Source: an uncultured Desulfovibrionaceae bacterium (GTDB lineage: Bacteria > Bacillota > Dethiobacteria > DTU022 > UBA8154). From it: 64,000 bases of DNA. Every line of letters starts with the position of its first letter. Position 1 is the first letter of the stretch. This document shows, piece after piece, positions 686-61,854 of the stretch. The translations under genes were made by a program, and so were the position numbers. The DNA is taken from NCBI GenBank assembly GCA_964603615.1, contig CAZRVU010000001.1, forward strand, positions 1,954 through 65,953, read 5' to 3'. Under the pieces are notes generated by a model, which saw only the letters and a list, made by a program, of their open reading frames with translations, searched no databases and was not told where the DNA came from.

Positions 686-1252
686 ATGGAAAATCTTGAT
701 ACCAGAATGGGTTATTTAAAAGGATTGATCGATGGCTTGGAGCTAACTGGTGACACAAAGGAAGGTAAGGTTTTTAACCAGATTATAGCGGTGTTCGAGG
801 AAGTGGTTAACTCCATAAAGGAACTAAAAGAAGATTATGACGAACTTTTTTCTTATGTGGAGGCCATTGATGAAGATCTGACTGACTTGGAAGACGAATG
901 CTACGGGGATGACGATGAAGATTATGACTATGACGACGAAGATTATGACTTTGATGATGATGATGACGACGACGACGATGATGAAGATGATGATTATGAT
1001 TTTGATGATGACGGCGATGACTATGAACATGAATTTGCTAATGACGATGAATATGAGATCAGTTTTACGGTAGAATGCCCGGAATGCCACCAGGAAGTAC
1101 CCATTGATAATGATATTTTAGAAAATGACGAGTCCCTGGAGGTGCTCTGCCCCAATTGCGGGAAAGTGGTTTTTATCAATGATGAAGAGTGGGAAGAAGA
1201 ATTGGAAGAAAGCGGTGACGAAGGAGATGAAGATGCCCCTCCAGAAGGCTAA
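686..1252 (+). CDS. Acidic D/E-rich protein with C-terminal CxxC-(N44)-CxxC zinc ribbon (CD1247 N-terminal-domain-like); contains a run of >20 Asp/Glu including DDDDDDDDDDEDDD
   Basis: 188 aa ORF with RBS AGGAGAG upstream. Structured N-terminal ~60 aa is followed by a D/E/Y low-complexity tract, then ECPECHQ...CPNCGK. The antisense 88-aa ORF is an artefact of the GAT/GAC repeat. Confidence 0.6.
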   Translation: MENLDTRMGYLKGLIDGLELTGDTKEGKVFNQIIAVFEEVVNSIKELKEDYDELFSYVEAIDEDLTDLEDECYGDDDEDYDYDDEDYDFDDDDDDDDDDEDDDYDFDDDGDDYEHEFANDDEYEISFTVECPECHQEVPIDNDILENDESLEVLCPNCGKVVFINDEEWEEELEESGDEGDEDAPPEG

Positions 1253-3324: not shown

Positions 3325-3531
3325 ATGCATGTTTTAAGAGTTGACCTCCTTTTTCAGATCGCCGGAATTGGCATTTTTATCTCTGTTATCAATATTGTCC
3401 TTAAGCAGGCAGGCAAGGAGGAACAAGCCCAAATGCTGACCCTGGTAGGGGTGGTGATCGTTCTTTTGTTGGTTTTACAATTGTTGGGGGAGCTTTTCAG
3501 CAGCATCCGTGAACTTTTCTATTTATATTAA
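3325..3531 (+). CDS. spoIIIAC: Stage III sporulation protein AC
   Basis: 68-aa two-TM protein MHVLRVDLLFQIAGIGIF... with typical SpoIIIAC size and sequence. Confidence 0.85.
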   Translation: MHVLRVDLLFQIAGIGIFISVINIVLKQAGKEEQAQMLTLVGVVIVLLLVLQLLGELFSSIRELFYLY

Positions 3532-3538
3532 CTATCTT

Positions 3539-3764
3539 GATTCTACTGCATAAATTCTATTTGCAAGGCGTTCGCTGGAATCAGCATCCCTTCGACTGGC
3601 AATTTTTCGACCGGGCCCATTGAACGTCCTCTTCAAAAGGCCCTAAAAATGGCGTCCTGCCATTTTTGCTTCAAAATTGTGGCGTCTTCATGGGCTGAAT
3701 TTTACAGCTCCCGCCCCAGCAAATTTTGTTTTATGCAACAGAATGTAATTTTTGCAGTGGAATC
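3539..3764. mobile_element. MITE-like 226-bp element, copy 1 (12-bp terminal inverted repeats GATTCTACTGCA ... TGCAGTGGAATC), inserted between spoIIIAC and spoIIIAD
   Basis: Reverse complement recurs at 60208..60432 with about 12 differences including one 1-bp indel (manual alignment, ~95% identity); contains an internal palindrome AAAAATGGCGTCCTGCCATTTTT and a 42-codon ORF. Confidence 0.6.
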
Positions 3765-3782
3765 ATATTATGCCTAATTTAA

Positions 3783-4181
3783 GTGGTGTTTGCTATGGAG
3801 ATTGCTCAGGTGATGGCTTTTGGGGTTATTGCTACCATACTTATTCTCTTTATCCGTCAGAACAGGCCCGATCTGGCTCAACTGCTTTCCATCGGCGTGG
3901 GGCTAGTGATCGTCACCTATGTACTGGGTTACCTAAAAATGGTTATTGATATCATCACCGATTTGGCTTTGGAAGCCGAGATCGACACCGTTTTTTTAAG
4001 AATTCTGCTACGCGTGATTGGTGTTGCTTATTTGGCGGAATTTGGTGCCCAGGTCTGCCGGGACGCAGGAGAGGGTAATATTGCCATTAAAATTGAATTT
4101 GCCGGGAAAATTCTGATTTTAGTGATGGCTGTGCCTGTTTTAGTGGCAGTTTTGGAGGGCATTGTTAATTTTATACCTTGA
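3783..4181 (+). CDS. spoIIIAD: Stage III sporulation protein AD
   Basis: 132-aa multi-TM protein; operon order; start may be the internal MEIAQV (3795). Confidence 0.85.
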   Translation: MVFAMEIAQVMAFGVIATILILFIRQNRPDLAQLLSIGVGLVIVTYVLGYLKMVIDIITDLALEAEIDTVFLRILLRVIGVAYLAEFGAQVCRDAGEGNIAIKIEFAGKILILVMAVPVLVAVLEGIVNFIP

Positions 4182-16380: not shown

Positions 16381-17298
16381 ATGAACTTTGAACATTTAAT
16401 GGAAACTAGAAAAGCTTTACTCGATAGGGCTATGGATTATTTCCTGCCCGCTGAAAAAGAATACCCCCGGGAGATTCACCGGGCGATGCGCTATAGTGTT
16501 TTTGCCGGCGGCAAGCGCCTCAGGCCGCTTTTGGTTTTATTTTCAGCGGAACTATTTACCGCTGATTGGCAAAGGGCGCTTCCGGCGGCTTGTGCGCTGG
16601 AATTAATACATACCTATTCCCTCATTCATGATGATTTGCCGGCAATGGACGATGATGACTACAGAAGGGGGCGCCTTACTTCTCATAAGGTATTTGGAGA
16701 AGGCGCAGCCATCTTGGCCGGGGATGCCTTGTTAACCCTGGCTTTTGAAATATTAGCCGGCTGCTGGGAACAGAAAAACGAATTGTATCATGCCTATTGG
16801 GCAAATGTCCGGCCGGAGGTTAAGCTCAAAGCTATTTGGGAATTGGCTCGCGCGGCAGGAGTTGGAGGGATGGTCGGAGGACAGGCAGTAGATCTTGCTT
16901 CGGAAGGAAAAGCGGTTGACGCAGGCACTATGGAATATATTGATACTCATAAAACGGGGGCGCTGCTTTTGGCTTCTGTACGTTTAGGGGCTCTTTTGGC
17001 TGGTGCTGAGGCTAATGAGCTGGACAGGCTCTCTGCTTTTGCCCGCTTGTTGGGAAGGGCTTTTCAGATTGTCGATGATCTTCTGGATATAGAAGGTGAC
17101 GAACAAAAAATGGGGAAGGCCAAAGGGAAAGATGTGCAAAGAGAAAAAGCCAACCTGGTTTCTTTTTATGGTGTGGATGCTGCCAAAAAAAACAGGGATC
17201 AATTATTTACGCAAGCCATGCAGGAGCTGTCTTTTTTTGGCGAAGAAGCTTTCCCCCTGCGGGAGATTACCCGCCTGGCCTTTTACCGGGATTATTAA
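16381..17298 (+). CDS. ispA: Farnesyl diphosphate synthase (geranyltranstransferase)
   Basis: Two aspartate-rich motifs LIHDDLPAMDDDDYRRG and FQIVDDLLD. Confidence 0.9.
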   Translation: MNFEHLMETRKALLDRAMDYFLPAEKEYPREIHRAMRYSVFAGGKRLRPLLVLFSAELFTADWQRALPAACALELIHTYSLIHDDLPAMDDDDYRRGRLTSHKVFGEGAAILAGDALLTLAFEILAGCWEQKNELYHAYWANVRPEVKLKAIWELARAAGVGGMVGGQAVDLASEGKAVDAGTMEYIDTHKTGALLLASVRLGALLAGAEANELDRLSAFARLLGRAFQIVDDLLDIEGDEQKMGKAKGKDVQREKANLVSFYGVDAAKKNRDQLFTQAMQELSFFGEEAFPLREITRLAFYRDY

Positions 17299-17898
17299 TG
17301 CATGAGCGGTTTACCATGGAAACGAAAGGTAACCCCTAATTTTATTTGAAATAGATATTTAATTCGAGTATAATAATAATTAGTTAGTAGTTAATTGATT
17401 GGACATAGCGTGGCGCAGTATCCTAGTTGTCACCAGCGTTTTCGAAGCGGGTGAAAAAACCGCTTTGGGCACAACGATGAAGTTCCTGGTGTTGGCTGCC
17501 GAAGCCCAGTCGGGGGTTAATACTGGGAGTTAAGGGGGACGGGGCGATCTACAAAGGCATGTAGGCGTTGACCCTGCCCCCGTGGAGACCCAAGTGCGTG
17601 GCGTATTACCATAAGGGTAAAGGGTTAGGGCTTGGGCCAGAACCTGTGTGTGGTCAAAACTGTGCACAGCGTAGCCGGCCTTGCGCGGCTTTGGGGGAGG
17701 AAGGCTTGGTCCTTAGGAAACCAAAACCGCAAAAAAGGATAGAAAACGTTATGGAGGCATCGGGGAAAACTCCTAGGCTGTTCCCTCTACCCGGGGGAGG
17801 CTTTATGGGGATTAAAGTGTGGTCTAAGTGGTAATCCAGCCCTGTTAGTGGCAACATGGCAGAAATGTTCTGAAAAGGAAACTGCCCCCTGGTAACAG
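17299..17898. other. ~600-bp GC-rich apparently non-coding block between ispA and the next gene (possible structured RNA or leader)
   Basis: No ORF >90 codons with protein-like composition; many G-runs and local hairpins (e.g. AAGCGG-GTGAAAAAA-CCGCTT); extends to ~18141 if the downstream gene starts at MRSYLIS. Confidence 0.3.
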
Positions 17899-18594
17899 GT
17901 GGTGAACATTTGGGAAATCCTGCTGGACCTCAAGCCGCAAAGTTTACTCATAAAGTTGCCACCTATGTCCATAAACAAAAAATTATTTTTGAGAGTGCAA
18001 AGAATCTTGGGGGATAACAAAAAAAGGCAAAGACAACAGAGCAAAAGAAAGAAAACTAGACATTGGGTAATCCTGATAAGTATTTGGACTTTTTTCTTCG
18101 CTGTGACTTTAACCTGGGTAACGCGTTTTTTATTACAAAATATGCGTTCATATCTGATTTCTTTTGTTCTTTTAATCTTGATTATTGCCCTGGGTATTTT
18201 TTTTGATTTAATTGGCACGGCGGCTACTGCTGCCGAGGAGACGCCTTTTCATGCCAAGGCTGCCAAAAAAATCTATGGGGCAAAGAAGGGTATATTTCTG
18301 GTACGCCATGCCGATCTGGTGGCAAATTTTTGTAATGATGTGGTTGGAGATATCAGTGGCATTGTGAGCGGAATTATCGGGGCCATAATCGTAGTCAATC
18401 TCGTTCAAAGAAATGCGGGTTTGAATGAAATATTTTTAAGTGTTCTTTTGGCGGGGATTGTATCTGCTTTAACGGTGGGCGGCAAAGCTTTTGGTAAGTC
18501 TTTGGCGATTAACAGGCCAACGGAGCTAGTGTTGTTTGTGGCTCGTTTTTTGACGACCTTTGAGCGGATTTTTATGAAAAAAAGAAGTTCATAG
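17899..18594 (+). CDS. DUF21 (CNNM-type transmembrane domain) membrane protein without CBS/CorC domains; start uncertain (GTG 17899, or ATG 18142)
   Basis: C-terminal ~150 aa resemble the DUF21 TM domain (LIGTAATAAEETPF..., LVANFCNDVVGDISGIVSGIIGA); the N-terminal 80 aa are lysine/arginine-rich with no SD before any candidate start. Confidence 0.4.
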   Translation: MVNIWEILLDLKPQSLLIKLPPMSINKKLFLRVQRILGDNKKRQRQQSKRKKTRHWVILISIWTFFFAVTLTWVTRFLLQNMRSYLISFVLLILIIALGIFFDLIGTAATAAEETPFHAKAAKKIYGAKKGIFLVRHADLVANFCNDVVGDISGIVSGIIGAIIVVNLVQRNAGLNEIFLSVLLAGIVSALTVGGKAFGKSLAINRPTELVLFVARFLTTFERIFMKKRSS

Positions 18595-18638: not shown

Positions 18639-20543
18639 TTGAATGTTATTCTTAAGAAGATTAACAGCCCTGCGGATTTAAAGAAATTATCATTCGCGGA
18701 GCTGCAGCAGTTGGCCGGCGAAATTAGGGAGCTGATGATTGAAGTTATATCCCAAAAAGGTGGGCATCTTGCCTCCAGCCTGGGGGTTGTGGAGTTGACT
18801 ATTGCACTTCACTTTGTTTTTAATGCTCCTTTTGATAAGATTATTTGGGATGTGGGGCACCAATGTTATGCTCACAAAATATTGACCGGGCGCGGGGAAA
18901 GTTTTAAAACAATTCGCTGCTACAAAGGTTTAAGTGGCTTTCCCAAAAGAGAGGAAAGCCTTTATGATGTTTTTAGCGTAGGGCACAGCAGTACTTCCCT
19001 TTCGGCTGCATTGGGTATGGCACGTGGCAGGGATCTACGGAAAGAAAAGTTTTTTGTGGTCAACGTGATCGGTGATGGTGCTCTCACAGGCGGTATTGCC
19101 CTGGAGGCACTCAATAATGCCGGGGAAAAGAAGACGGATCTAATCGTTATTTTAAATGATAATGAGATGTCGATCAGCGAAAATATTGGCGGCTTGCCTT
19201 CCTATCTGGCTAGATTGCGCACAGATCCCAAATATTACCGCCTGAAAGAAGATCTGGAACAAGTTCTTGAACGCATACCGGCTATTGGTAAAACTGTACT
19301 TCGTTCAGCGGAACGGTTGAAGGACAGTTTGAAATATCTGCTAGTGCCGGGGATGCTTTTTGAAGAGTTGGGCTTTACATATTTGGGGCCGGTTGATGGC
19401 CACTCTATCCCCAAGCTCGTGAATTTTTTACGCGAGATTAAAGATGTGCGCGGGCCTGTTTTGCTACATGTTGTGACTAAAAAAGGTAAAGGTTACCTTC
19501 CTGCGGAGAAGAAGCCCCTTCTTTTTCACGGTGTAGGCCCTTTTGATAAGAAGACAGGCGCCCCCTTTTCTGCGGGCAAGGATAAACCAACTTATAGCAG
19601 GGTATTTAGCTCTGCTTTAGAAAAAATTGCCGAAGAGGATTCTTCCATTGTGGCTATTACGGCGGCGATGGCTACGGGGACCGGTTTAGAAAATTTTGCG
19701 CAGCGCTGGCCAAAACGTTTTTTTGATGTAGGAATTGCCGAACAACATGCTGTAACTATGGCTGCGGGGCTGGCCGTAGAGGGCTTAAAGCCTGTTGTTG
19801 CCATTTATAGCACTTTTCTGCAAAGGGCTTACGACCAAATCCTGCACGATGTATGCCTGCAAAATCTGCCGGTTGTCTTTGCTGTGGACCGGGCAGGCCT
19901 GGTGGGTGAGGATGGAGATACGCACAACGGCCTCTACGATCTAGCTTATTTGCGAAATATGCCCAACCTCATTCTCATGGCTCCTGCTAGCGCTGAAGAG
20001 TTGACAGCGATGCTCAAAATGGCGTTGAAGATGAAACGCCCGGCGGCAATCAGGTACCCGCGTGGTTTTGCAGCAGATTCCTTAACAAAGAAAAATGATG
20101 AATTAGCGTTCGGCAAAGCCCGGCTTTTAACGGAAGGCCGTGATCTACTTATTCTTGCGGTTGGCTCCATGGTTGCACCGGCCCTTAAGGCGCAGGAGCT
20201 GCTGTTAAAATTGCAGATTAGAAGTAGCGTGATCAATTCCCGGTTTATTCAACCACTGGACAAGGAATTAATTTGTCATTGGGCTAAAAAATGTGGGCGG
20301 GTTATTACTGTGGAAGAGCATATCGTTAACGGCGGTTTTGGCAGTGCAGTTCTGGAAATATTAGCAGATGAGGGCATCCAAGGGGTACACTTGAAACGTT
20401 TAGGGTTGCCAGGCCCGTATGCCGGACAGGGAAATAGGGAATTTTTATTGGACTTGCATGGCCTTTCGGCAGAGGGGATTGCCCGTGAGGCCGTGAGGCT
20501 CTACCGGGTTCAAGAAAAGGTGTACCGGGGGATGCCCCGTTGA
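18639..20543 (+). CDS. dxs: 1-deoxy-D-xylulose-5-phosphate synthase
   Basis: 634 aa; TPP-binding GDGALTGG and transketolase-like domains. Confidence 0.9.
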   Translation: MNVILKKINSPADLKKLSFAELQQLAGEIRELMIEVISQKGGHLASSLGVVELTIALHFVFNAPFDKIIWDVGHQCYAHKILTGRGESFKTIRCYKGLSGFPKREESLYDVFSVGHSSTSLSAALGMARGRDLRKEKFFVVNVIGDGALTGGIALEALNNAGEKKTDLIVILNDNEMSISENIGGLPSYLARLRTDPKYYRLKEDLEQVLERIPAIGKTVLRSAERLKDSLKYLLVPGMLFEELGFTYLGPVDGHSIPKLVNFLREIKDVRGPVLLHVVTKKGKGYLPAEKKPLLFHGVGPFDKKTGAPFSAGKDKPTYSRVFSSALEKIAEEDSSIVAITAAMATGTGLENFAQRWPKRFFDVGIAEQHAVTMAAGLAVEGLKPVVAIYSTFLQRAYDQILHDVCLQNLPVVFAVDRAGLVGEDGDTHNGLYDLAYLRNMPNLILMAPASAEELTAMLKMALKMKRPAAIRYPRGFAADSLTKKNDELAFGKARLLTEGRDLLILAVGSMVAPALKAQELLLKLQIRSSVINSRFIQPLDKELICHWAKKCGRVITVEEHIVNGGFGSAVLEILADEGIQGVHLKRLGLPGPYAGQGNREFLLDLHGLSAEGIAREAVRLYRVQEKVYRGMPR

Positions 20544-59596: not shown

Positions 59597-60184
59597 TTGG
59601 TATTGTTGATGATAGTTTTTGCTTATCTGCTGGGATCGGTTTCTTTTGGCTACATCATTGCTAAAAAAACAAAGGGGATTGACATCAGAAAAATTGGTAG
59701 TGGCAGTACAGGTGCGACTAACACCTCCAGAGTGCTAGGATTTAATTTTTTTGCCATAGTTTTAGCTCTAGATGCTTTGAAGGGACTCCTTGTGATTCTG
59801 ATTGCTTCTTACCTGTTTACGGAAGACTGGGCCATATTGCTTAGTGGCGCAGCAGTAATCATCGGGCATAACTGGCCGGTTTTTTTTAATTTTCAGGGTG
59901 GAAGGGGTGCTGCTACAACACTGGGTGTTTTTCTGGGAATAACACCCCTGCCTACGCTGGTTGTCTTTGGTATCTTTATCTTGATCGTTCTGCTCACGCG
60001 TTATGTTTCTTTAGGTTCGATGCTGGGTGCCCTTGCCATACCTGTTGCGATTATCATTCTAGGTTATCCCTGGGAATACCTTGTTTTTGGTTTGGCGGTT
60101 TGTCTGCTGCTATTGTGGAGGCATAAACCAAATATCGAAAGGTTGTTAAAAGGGAAAGAACCCCGGTTGGGCGAAAAAACCTAA
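59597..60184 (+). CDS. plsY: Glycerol-3-phosphate acyltransferase PlsY
   Basis: Conserved G3P-binding SGSTGATN motif in a multi-TM protein. Confidence 0.85.
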   Translation: MVLLMIVFAYLLGSVSFGYIIAKKTKGIDIRKIGSGSTGATNTSRVLGFNFFAIVLALDALKGLLVILIASYLFTEDWAILLSGAAVIIGHNWPVFFNFQGGRGAATTLGVFLGITPLPTLVVFGIFILIVLLTRYVSLGSMLGALAIPVAIIILGYPWEYLVFGLAVCLLLLWRHKPNIERLLKGKEPRLGEKT

Positions 60185-60207
60185 AAATGTGACAAATTTT
60201 ATAATAT

Positions 60208-60432
60208 GATTCCACTGCAAAAATTACATTTTGCGGCATAAAACGAAATTTGCTGGGGCGGGAGCTGTAAAAATCAGCCCATGAAGACGCCACAATTTTG
60301 AAGCAAAAATGGCAGGACGCCATTTTTAGGGCCTTTTGAAGAGGACGTTCAATTGGCCGGGCGAAAAATTGTCAGTCGAAGGGATGCTGATTCCAGCGAA
60401 CGCCTTGCAAATAGGGTTTATGTAGTAGAATC
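60208..60432. mobile_element. MITE-like 225-bp element, copy 2 (inverted relative to copy 1), between plsY and gpsA
   Basis: Reverse complement of 3539..3764 with about 12 differences; same TIRs (GATTCCACTGCA ... TGTAGTAGAATC on the + strand); the internal ORF is on the minus strand here and runs on into plsY antisense. Confidence 0.6.
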
Positions 60433-60520
60433 ATTATATCTTTTACTCAAATATTTGCACGAAAGGAGGTGGGGCGGCTTTTTCCCCTGAAAGTCCGGGA
60501 ATCTCCGTCGCCTTGTTTTT

Positions 60521-61528
60521 ATGGATATTGGTCTGATTGGAGCAGGAAGTTGGGGAACAGCCCTGGCAATTCTATTAGGCCGGAAAGGTTTGCCGATCAC
60601 CCTTTGGGTCAGGAGGGCTAGCTTACTGGAGGAGATTACTAGGACGCGCCTTAATAGTATTTACCTGCCAGATGTCTACATACCGGATAATATAGTTTTA
60701 ACCAACGATTTGGAAAAAACTGTGCGCCGGAAAAATTTTATTATTATGTCTGTTCCTTCGCATGCGCTGGCTGGTTTGGTGCACGAGATCAAGGATTTTC
60801 TCGATGAACGTGCTATTATTGTTAATACGGCCAAAGGGTTGGCTGAAGGCCCGGGTATGCGCCTTTCCCAGGTCATAGACAAGCTTGTTCCACGTAACCG
60901 GGTTGCCGTTCTCTCCGGGCCCAATCATGCGGAGGAAGTAAGCCGTTTGTTGCCTACAGCTTCGGTCGTGGCCTCTACAGAACAGGCAGTAGCGGAAAAA
61001 GTGCAGGATATTTTTATGGCTCCTACTTTCCGGGTTTATACCAATCCTGATATTGTCGGAGTAGAGCTGGGTGGAGCCTTAAAAAATATTATTGCTATTG
61101 GTGCGGGTGTCTGTGACGGGTTAGATTATGGAGATAATACCAAGGCGGCTTTGCTTACCAGGGGATTGGTGGAAATTACTCGCTTAGGCTTGGCCCTGGG
61201 GGCACAAAAGGGGACTTTTAGTGGCTTAACAGGAATGGGGGATCTTTTTGTGACCTGTACCAGCCGGTATAGTCGCAACCGTTATGTAGGGATGATGCTG
61301 GGTAAAAATCAATCTTTAAAAGAAATATCTTCTACCATGAAAATGGTTGCTGAGGGAATTAGAACGACCCGCATTGCCTATGAATTGTCCCAAAGTTATG
61401 ATATAAAAATGCCTATTACCAAGGAAATATATGAATTATTATTTTTGGGAAAAGATTCCCGGGAAGCAGTCAAAAATTTAATGCAGCGGCAAAAAACACA
61501 TGAGATCGAGGAGATTGCTTTCGATTAA
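60521..61528 (+). CDS. gpsA: NAD(P)H-dependent glycerol-3-phosphate dehydrogenase
   Basis: N-terminal GAGSWGTA Rossmann motif; size. Confidence 0.9.
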   Translation: MDIGLIGAGSWGTALAILLGRKGLPITLWVRRASLLEEITRTRLNSIYLPDVYIPDNIVLTNDLEKTVRRKNFIIMSVPSHALAGLVHEIKDFLDERAIIVNTAKGLAEGPGMRLSQVIDKLVPRNRVAVLSGPNHAEEVSRLLPTASVVASTEQAVAEKVQDIFMAPTFRVYTNPDIVGVELGGALKNIIAIGAGVCDGLDYGDNTKAALLTRGLVEITRLGLALGAQKGTFSGLTGMGDLFVTCTSRYSRNRYVGMMLGKNQSLKEISSTMKMVAEGIRTTRIAYELSQSYDIKMPITKEIYELLFLGKDSREAVKNLMQRQKTHEIEEIAFD

Positions 61529-61575: not shown

Positions 61576-61669
61576 GATAAACTGCATTAGTGAATGACAG
61601 TCTGGGATAAACTGCATTTGTGAATGATGGTCTGGGATGAACTATATTTGTGCTTAATTAATAGTCTGG
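61576..61669. repeat. Three tandem ~30-bp direct repeats GAT(A/G)AACT(G/A)(C/T)AT(T)TGTGAATGA(C/T)(A/G)GTCTGG in the gpsA 3' region
   Basis: Units at 61576-61605, 61606-61635 and 61636-61669 (third unit degenerate with an insertion). Confidence 0.5.
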
Positions 61670-61727: not shown

Positions 61728-61762
61728 GCCTGTCTAAAAAAGAAGACAGGTATTTCTTTGTT
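61728..61762 (+). terminator. Terminator candidate (CCTGTCT-AAAAAAGA-AGACAGG + T-rich tail)
   Basis: 7-bp stem followed by TATTTCTTTGTTT between gpsA and spoIVA. Confidence 0.45.
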
Positions 61763-61766
61763 TATT

Positions 61767-61795
61767 GTAATATTGTCTCTTTATCTTCATATAAA
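61767..61795 (+). promoter_or_regulatory. SigE-type promoter candidate for spoIVA (AATATT - 13 nt - CATATAAAT)
   Basis: Resembles the B. subtilis sigma-E consensus (ATATT ... CATACA-T); spoIVA is sigma-E dependent in Bacillus. Confidence 0.3.
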
Positions 61796-61854
61796 TATAA
61801 CGTTAGTACCTTTCATTGAAGCAATATGCCTGGATAATAAGGAGGGGAGAAGGT

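Follow-up and report, generated by a model that had tools for sequence, protein, structure and literature searches.

A probable MITE-like palindromic repeat in two operon spacers of an uncultured Dethiobacteria-related bacterium

The long spacer between plsY and gpsA in an uncultured bacterium raises the question of what kind of sequence fills it, since much of the spacer recurs in inverted orientation between two sporulation genes of an unrelated operon. Such a sequence might be a regulatory site, a small gene, or a mobile element that has landed twice. We considered these readings for a window of 64 kb, by which we mean the whole stretch of DNA that was analyzed (positions 1-64000). The host can be described as a Dethiobacteria-related member of the Bacillota, as judged from the names on the closest PlsY and SpoIIIAD matches, which belong to uncultured Bacillota near Dethiobacter and Dethiobacteria. 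The window has a G+C content of 44% and carries the efp-spoIIIA, der-plsY-gpsA and spoIVA regions. All of its gene-like long open reading frames are on the plus strand, and the few long frames on the minus strand overlap those on the plus strand.

Copy 1 of the repeat (3538-3765, plus strand, 228 nt), whose orientation is used as the reference, occupies the spacer between spoIIIAC (3325-3531, plus strand; PF06686) and spoIIIAD (3795-4181, plus strand; PF06686, with 128-aa homologues named stage III sporulation protein AD). Copy 2 (60207-60433, minus strand, 227 nt) lies 56 kb away in inverted orientation, between plsY (59597-60184, plus strand; PF02660, G3P_acyltransf, E 1.4e-54) and gpsA (60521-61528, plus strand; PF01210 and PF07479). 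These Pfam matches bear out the preliminary description, which had placed the element between plsY and gpsA with both flanking genes on the plus strand. It had also described copy 2 as the reverse complement of copy 1. Indeed, blastn aligns the two copies on opposite strands over 234 nt with 94.9% identity (E 1.3e-103), and a repeat scan of the window recovers the same relationship as two pairs of inverted segments, 3604-3771/60201-60368 (168 nt, 94%) and 3533-3614/60357-60438 (82 nt, 91%). The bounds originally given for copy 2, 60208-60432, were correct as to place and become 60207-60433 once the outer edges of the two terminal repeats are taken as its limits.

Between the copies there are 11 substitutions and a single indel of 1 nt. 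Their identity ends at or just past the inverted termini TGATTCYACTRC...GCAGTRGAATCA, and six flanking bases beside one end, TATTAT, are also common to both. No further copy, including diverged ones, was found in the 64-kb window by blastn, by a search with the terminus pattern, or with an nhmmer profile.

A common pattern, TGATTCYACTRCAWAAA, is present at all four ends of the two copies, and the terminal inverted repeats of each copy are therefore about 19 nt long. These repeats are imperfect. In copy 2 they are located at 60207-60225 on the plsY side (TGATTCCACTGCAAAAATT) and at 60415-60433 on the gpsA side (the reverse complement of TGATTCTACTACATAAACC), and both were recognized from the pattern match and from their participation in helix 1. 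This terminal helix comprises 18 pairs and joins columns 1-19 with columns 210-228.

The palindromic character is not confined to the AT-rich termini. The entire element is an imperfect palindrome that is predicted to form one long hairpin on either strand (-80.8 and -74.9 kcal/mol, with z scores of -5.2 and -6.1 relative to dinucleotide shuffles), and its minimum-energy structure has 81 pairs overall. At the center are two small hairpins, one of which is an A5-stem-T5 arrangement that reads the same on both strands. The two include the perfect hairpin AAAAATGGC-AGGAC-GCCATTTTT (60305-60327; 3644-3668 in copy 1), which constitutes helix 7 with 10 pairs, is invariant between the copies, and contains the start codon of a short open reading frame (sORF) that is considered below. 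By eye, one end of the element also carries an outward-facing promoter-like site, TTGCAA-15 nt-TAGAAT, which was dropped because its spacing is poor.

The same two spacers in related species provide the most direct indication of how the copies arose. In this bacterium the plsY-gpsA spacer is 336 nt long, compared with 31 nt in a relative whose PlsY is 84% identical and 24 nt in another with 77% identity. Likewise, the spoIIIAC-spoIIIAD spacer measures 263 nt here versus 27 nt and 17 nt in relatives whose SpoIIIAD proteins are 89% and 83% identical, respectively. Because the orthologous spacers are just 17-31 nt long, both copies must be regarded as insertions. When the element, three extra bases and one pentamer are removed by hand from the copy 1 locus, a spacer of 27 nt is left, which is the length found in the closest relative. 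No trace of the element was detected in approximately 110 kb of loci from related species.

The timing of these events can be bracketed. At the plsY site, the element is also present in strains of the same species from two other samples (98.7-98.8% identity). Thus, the insertions are older than the split between these strains and younger than the separation from species whose DNA is about 80% identical, because the strains share the plsY-site copy and the corresponding loci of related species are without the element. The 5% divergence between the copies fits this order of events.

The remainder of the plsY-gpsA spacer, of which 87 nt lie at 60434-60520 (about 100 nt in all), is lineage-specific and is repeated nowhere else. 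No Shine-Dalgarno sequence is found near the gpsA start codon at 60521. A strong one, GAAAGGAGGTG, is located 47 nt upstream (60463-60473), and a hairpin is predicted between it and the start codon (-22.4 kcal/mol for the folded 80-nt stretch 60456-60535). In relatives, the ribosome-binding site of gpsA directly precedes the start.

Additional evidence comes from a third locus outside the window. A 37-nt sequence, TGATTCCATTGCAAATAGAGTTTAGGCAGTAGAATCA, is present at positions 16-52 of contig L012, roughly 2.0 kb upstream of window position 1; this contig is 100% identical to the window over their overlap. The sequence consists of the left 29 nt and the right 8 nt of the element, joined at TGCAA[A/T], a motif common to both arms. 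Both termini are kept and the sORF is absent. The 37-nt sequence is an internal-deletion derivative of the element. A contig from another sample (L013) begins inside it.

The copies seen directly therefore amount to two full elements and one remnant, and the way in which public assemblies are fragmented suggests that this census is incomplete. In each of four samples (SRR8925753, SRR20950113, DRR835046 and ERZ28614712), short-read contigs of the same species end inside the element. We compared these ends with the break points predicted from the known copies by an edge-centric de Bruijn graph, on the assumption that the public contigs follow an edge-centric graph with k=31. For copy 2, the predicted and observed breaks coincide at 60385 on the gpsA side, and on the plsY side a break predicted at 60303 is observed at 60265. 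For copy 1, the corresponding values are 3586 and 3565 on the spoIIIAC side and 3669 and 3740 on the spoIIIAD side, and an ENA contig assembled with k=55 breaks at 3673, compared with a prediction of 3672. The model thus places one of the four k=31 breaks exactly and the k=55 break within 1 nt, and the other three k=31 breaks are nearer to the termini than predicted. Breaks so close to the termini are not expected from two copies and imply that more sequences share the terminal 31-mers. Additional copies would be the simplest source of such sequences, and strain variants could contribute as well. A node-centric graph model with k=31 left the contig ends unfitted and was rejected.

Searches of wider collections yielded no credible relatives of the element. 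Its central 19-mer gave nine matches in the GTDB species-representative genomes, a collection that evidently lacks the source genome, and all nine are chance matches of 19-27 nt in unrelated phyla; this 19-mer is a poor probe for fragmented assemblies, from which collapsed repeats are usually dropped. The terminal 21-mer had a single chance match, from seawater, among JGI and ENA metagenome contigs. Neither pattern matched IMG/VR, and blastn of the element against plasmid and phage collections returned no match. Low-stringency blastn and a profile built from the two copies (nhmmer) revealed no diverged copies in the window together with about 236 kb of loci. In the literature, the element termini matched unrelated primers only.

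Considered together, these observations lead us to conclude that the element is probably a lineage-specific, non-autonomous, MITE-like repeat that is moved in trans, by a transposase recognizing its termini, into AT-rich spacers in random orientation. The preliminary description had already favored transposition over a gene-specific regulatory site, and that preference has held up well. It agrees with the presence of the same inverted termini in unrelated operons and in opposite orientations, and it gains further support from the short orthologous spacers (24-31 and 17-27 nt), the 37-nt derivative, and the break points that imply more copies.

Bacterial MITEs are already known as a kind, and the element has most of their defining features. 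It is small (227-228 bp) and includes no transposase gene, its sole conserved open reading frame being 42 codons long. It is bounded by terminal inverted repeats of about 19 nt that form an 18-pair terminal helix. It is dispersed, with full copies in both orientations and a shortened derivative, and its two sites are empty in relatives. The element appears to represent a MITE-like family that has not been described before, and it was seen in a single uncultured Dethiobacteria-related species only.

According to this proposal, a transposase encoded elsewhere in the genome would bind the inverted termini and move the element into short AT-rich intergenic spacers, perhaps duplicating 5 bp of the target. 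The orientation of insertion would be random, so that copy 1 is in the sense direction and copy 2 in the antisense direction relative to operons that are all on the plus strand. Once inserted, the element would be co-transcribed with its operon, and in either orientation two genes that had formerly been tightly linked would then be separated by a long hairpin in the RNA, with a fold energy of about -75 to -81 kcal/mol.

A candidate target-site duplication in copy 2 is formed by TTATA at 60199-60203 and TTATA at 60434-60438. The right-hand pentamer directly follows the GAATCA end, and the bases ATA (60204-60206) are found between the left-hand pentamer and the TGATTCC end. The best common register is 5 bp, with the pairs TTATA/TTATA, GCATA/AGATA and TTTAT/TTGAT matching at 5/5, 3/5 and 4/5 positions (12/15), and it requires an asymmetric 3-nt extension at one end. 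In a shuffle test that allows for the 64 registers and the AT-rich flanks, this register has a P value of about 0.08 and is not significant. Within the 64-kb window there is no autonomous element with matching termini; a single match to the termini with two mismatches is attributable to chance.

Given that no target-site duplication is statistically supported, a palindromic repeat of this type might instead be mobilized by another route, either by a single-strand Y1 transposase that acts on hairpins, as in REPIN/RAYT systems or elements derived from IS200/IS605, or by site-specific recombination at AT-rich pentanucleotides. The hairpin spans the whole element and not its ends alone, as would suit such a route. 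Furthermore, the bcr repeats of the Bacillus cereus group, which have been proposed to move by recombination at an AT-rich pentanucleotide, have a TTTAT motif associated with their mobility (PMC6542083), and the pentamers beside the element (TTATA and TTTAT/TTGAT) are similar to it. However, REP doublets are far shorter than the 228 nt of the element, whose arms are also not assembled from short GC-rich REP units. The 19-nt termini have the appearance of ordinary transposon ends of the TG...CA type, and no RAYT or Y1 transposase was noticed within the 64-kb window. We therefore regard these other routes, the main rival reading, as unlikely and movement by a transposase acting on the termini as the better account.

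A functional reading would treat the element as a domesticated RNA module that operates in either orientation, with the long hairpin and the two invariant central hairpins acting in the operon transcript. It might, for example, be processed by RNase III or attenuate transcription weakly in both directions, and so uncouple spoIIIAD and gpsA from their upstream genes. Both insertions are within operons and leave the downstream ribosome-binding region intact, and the fold is strong on either strand. There is also precedent among small repeats, since the inverted repeats of Correia elements are sites of RNase III cleavage and mRNA decay is altered by ERIC elements (PMC10969869); a comparable side effect of the hairpin on the transcript is therefore plausible by analogy. 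The central 80 nt, which include the perfect hairpin, are identical in the two copies, as might be expected of a conserved functional core. However, an identical run of this length is not unusual when 12 differences are placed at random (P 0.06-0.13). The differences at paired positions likewise do not favor a maintained fold, as seven break a pair, three produce a wobble and none are double, compensatory changes, a count to which two sequences lend little power. Scans for promoter and terminator consensus sequences found nothing within the element, and the central hairpin was not called as a terminator. No Rfam family matches the element at the gathering level, the best permissive matches (E 3.9 and 9.1) being far below threshold. 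Moreover, related species manage without the element. A domesticated module of this sort is thus quite improbable, and we have even greater reservations about the more specific proposal that the invariant 80-nt core has been co-opted as an orientation-independent processing or attenuation module that splits the spoIIIA and der-plsY-gpsA transcripts.

Alternatively, the sORF might be a genuine small-protein gene carried by the element. This frame is open in both copies, starts with ATG, and has a weak AAGG 8 nt upstream of the start. In copy 1 it runs in the sense direction of the operon for 42 codons (3649-3777, plus strand), ending with a TAA at 3775-3777 that is outside the element. In copy 2 it runs antisense to the operon for 89 codons (60054-60323, minus strand), exits the element, and overlaps the 3' end of plsY by 131 nt, as the preliminary description had anticipated in noting that the frame continues into plsY in antisense. 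Because the stop codon is in the flank of both copies, the site of insertion would decide whether the product has 42 or 89 residues. A genuine gene would not be expected to have its carboxyl terminus set in this way, to lie antisense to plsY, or to have its start codon buried in the stem of the central hairpin. In addition, the 37-nt derivative has no frame at all.

The differences between the copies tell the same story. The frame has accumulated three nonsynonymous and two synonymous changes, an exact count that matches the one proposed earlier (three, and about two): E17D, C27R, and Q30P accompanied by one silent change, and, at Q31, a further silent change. This agrees with the neutral expectation for a synonymous-site fraction of 0.19, and such a count has no power, in keeping with the original caution that it was too small to show selection. 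The half of the element that contains the frame has five differences and the other half has seven.

Database comparisons were similarly unproductive. The sORF has no match in Pfam, and among 5.8 billion protein clusters none shares even three 5-residue words with it, which means that no pipeline called this frame, in the source genome included. When 1.84 billion representatives were searched exhaustively with HMMER, only one spurious match of 34.6 bits, to a repetitive 400-aa protein, was returned. It is therefore extremely unlikely that the element carries a genuine small-protein gene. The sORF is almost certainly incidental, a by-product of the sequence of the element, and the earlier suspicion that it is not a real gene is upheld by the neutral changes, the stop codon in the flank, and the absence of a Pfam match or a credible homologue.

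With a MITE-like mobile repeat as the preferred reading, the element can be compared with repeat families that are already known. It has no sequence similarity to the described MITE families, as judged from the lack of an Rfam match and of a literature match for its termini. Its length of 228 bp exceeds that of Correia, RUP and ERIC elements (about 100-160 bp), and a clean duplication, of TA or otherwise, was not seen at its ends. In other respects the resemblance is close. As described in two accounts (PMC10969869; PMC2759123), the Correia elements of Neisseria, the RUP elements of Streptococcus pneumoniae and the ERIC elements of enterobacteria are, like the present element, small, devoid of a transposase, bounded by terminal inverted repeats and able to form a hairpin over their whole length. 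The same accounts also describe their occurrence between genes and within operons in either orientation, co-transcription with neighboring genes and occasional fortuitous open reading frames, all of which have counterparts here.

The bcr1-bcr3 repeats share a different set of features with the element, being repeats of at most a few hundred base pairs in spore-forming Bacillota, with features of mobile elements and AT-rich pentanucleotides at their junctions (PMC6542083). However, bcr repeats are confined to the B. cereus group, whereas the element resides in a Dethiobacteria-related host and so falls outside the bcr family. The element has no sequence match among PLSDB plasmids, whose bcr content was uncounted, and its own pentamer pattern is without statistical support.

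REP and REPIN sequences are less similar. They are built from short GC-rich palindromic units of about 20-40 nt, arranged as inverted doublets near a RAYT gene, whereas the element is a single imperfect palindrome of 228 nt with AT-rich termini and no short REP unit. Insertion sequences of the IS3 family have ends of the form 5'-TG...CA-3' and generate duplications of 3-5 bp. The termini of the element start with TGA and end with TCA, and a 5-bp duplication is possible, which recalls this family. However, in the best register three additional bases lie beyond the TG of one end, unlike the ends of IS3-type elements, and neither an IS3-type transposase nor a full-length parent was found in the window.

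Recognition of this repeat has practical consequences. Gene annotations should omit the 42- and 89-codon frames, and the long plsY-gpsA and spoIIIAC-spoIIIAD spacers should be read as insertions rather than as regulatory regions. Short-read assemblies of this species break at both sites because of the repeat. The two sites also constitute a natural case in which a hairpin of about -80 kcal/mol is present inside two essential operons, and they could serve to examine how insertions of this type are tolerated.

Several other features of the window deserve brief mention. A full-length OLE (ornate large extremophilic) RNA is located at 17394-17978 on the plus strand (Rfam RF01071, 418.9 bits, E 1e-119). 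A polyprenyl synthetase gene (16381-17298) lies upstream of it. On the downstream side are a membrane protein reading frame that matches CNNM weakly (17899-18594) and dxs (18639-20543), an arrangement that we take to be the usual OLE neighborhood.

Between efp and spoIIIAA, the region at 686-1252 (plus strand) encodes a protein of 188 aa in which a very long tract is rich in Asp and Glu and the C terminus bears a zinc-ribbon-like CxxC...CxxC motif. This protein has weak Pfam matches to DUF7560 and Zn_ribbon_4, and a syntenic open reading frame of similar size is present in two relatives (L029 and L030). Between gpsA and spoIVA, a 30-nt unit, GATAAACTGCATTWGTGAATGAYRGTCTGG, occurs in tandem at 61576-61668 in two to three copies, which are absent from related species. 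The approximately 100 nt upstream of spoIVA (about 61730-61815) are nearly identical across relatives and include the hairpin GCCTGTCT-AAAAAAG-AAGACAGGT.
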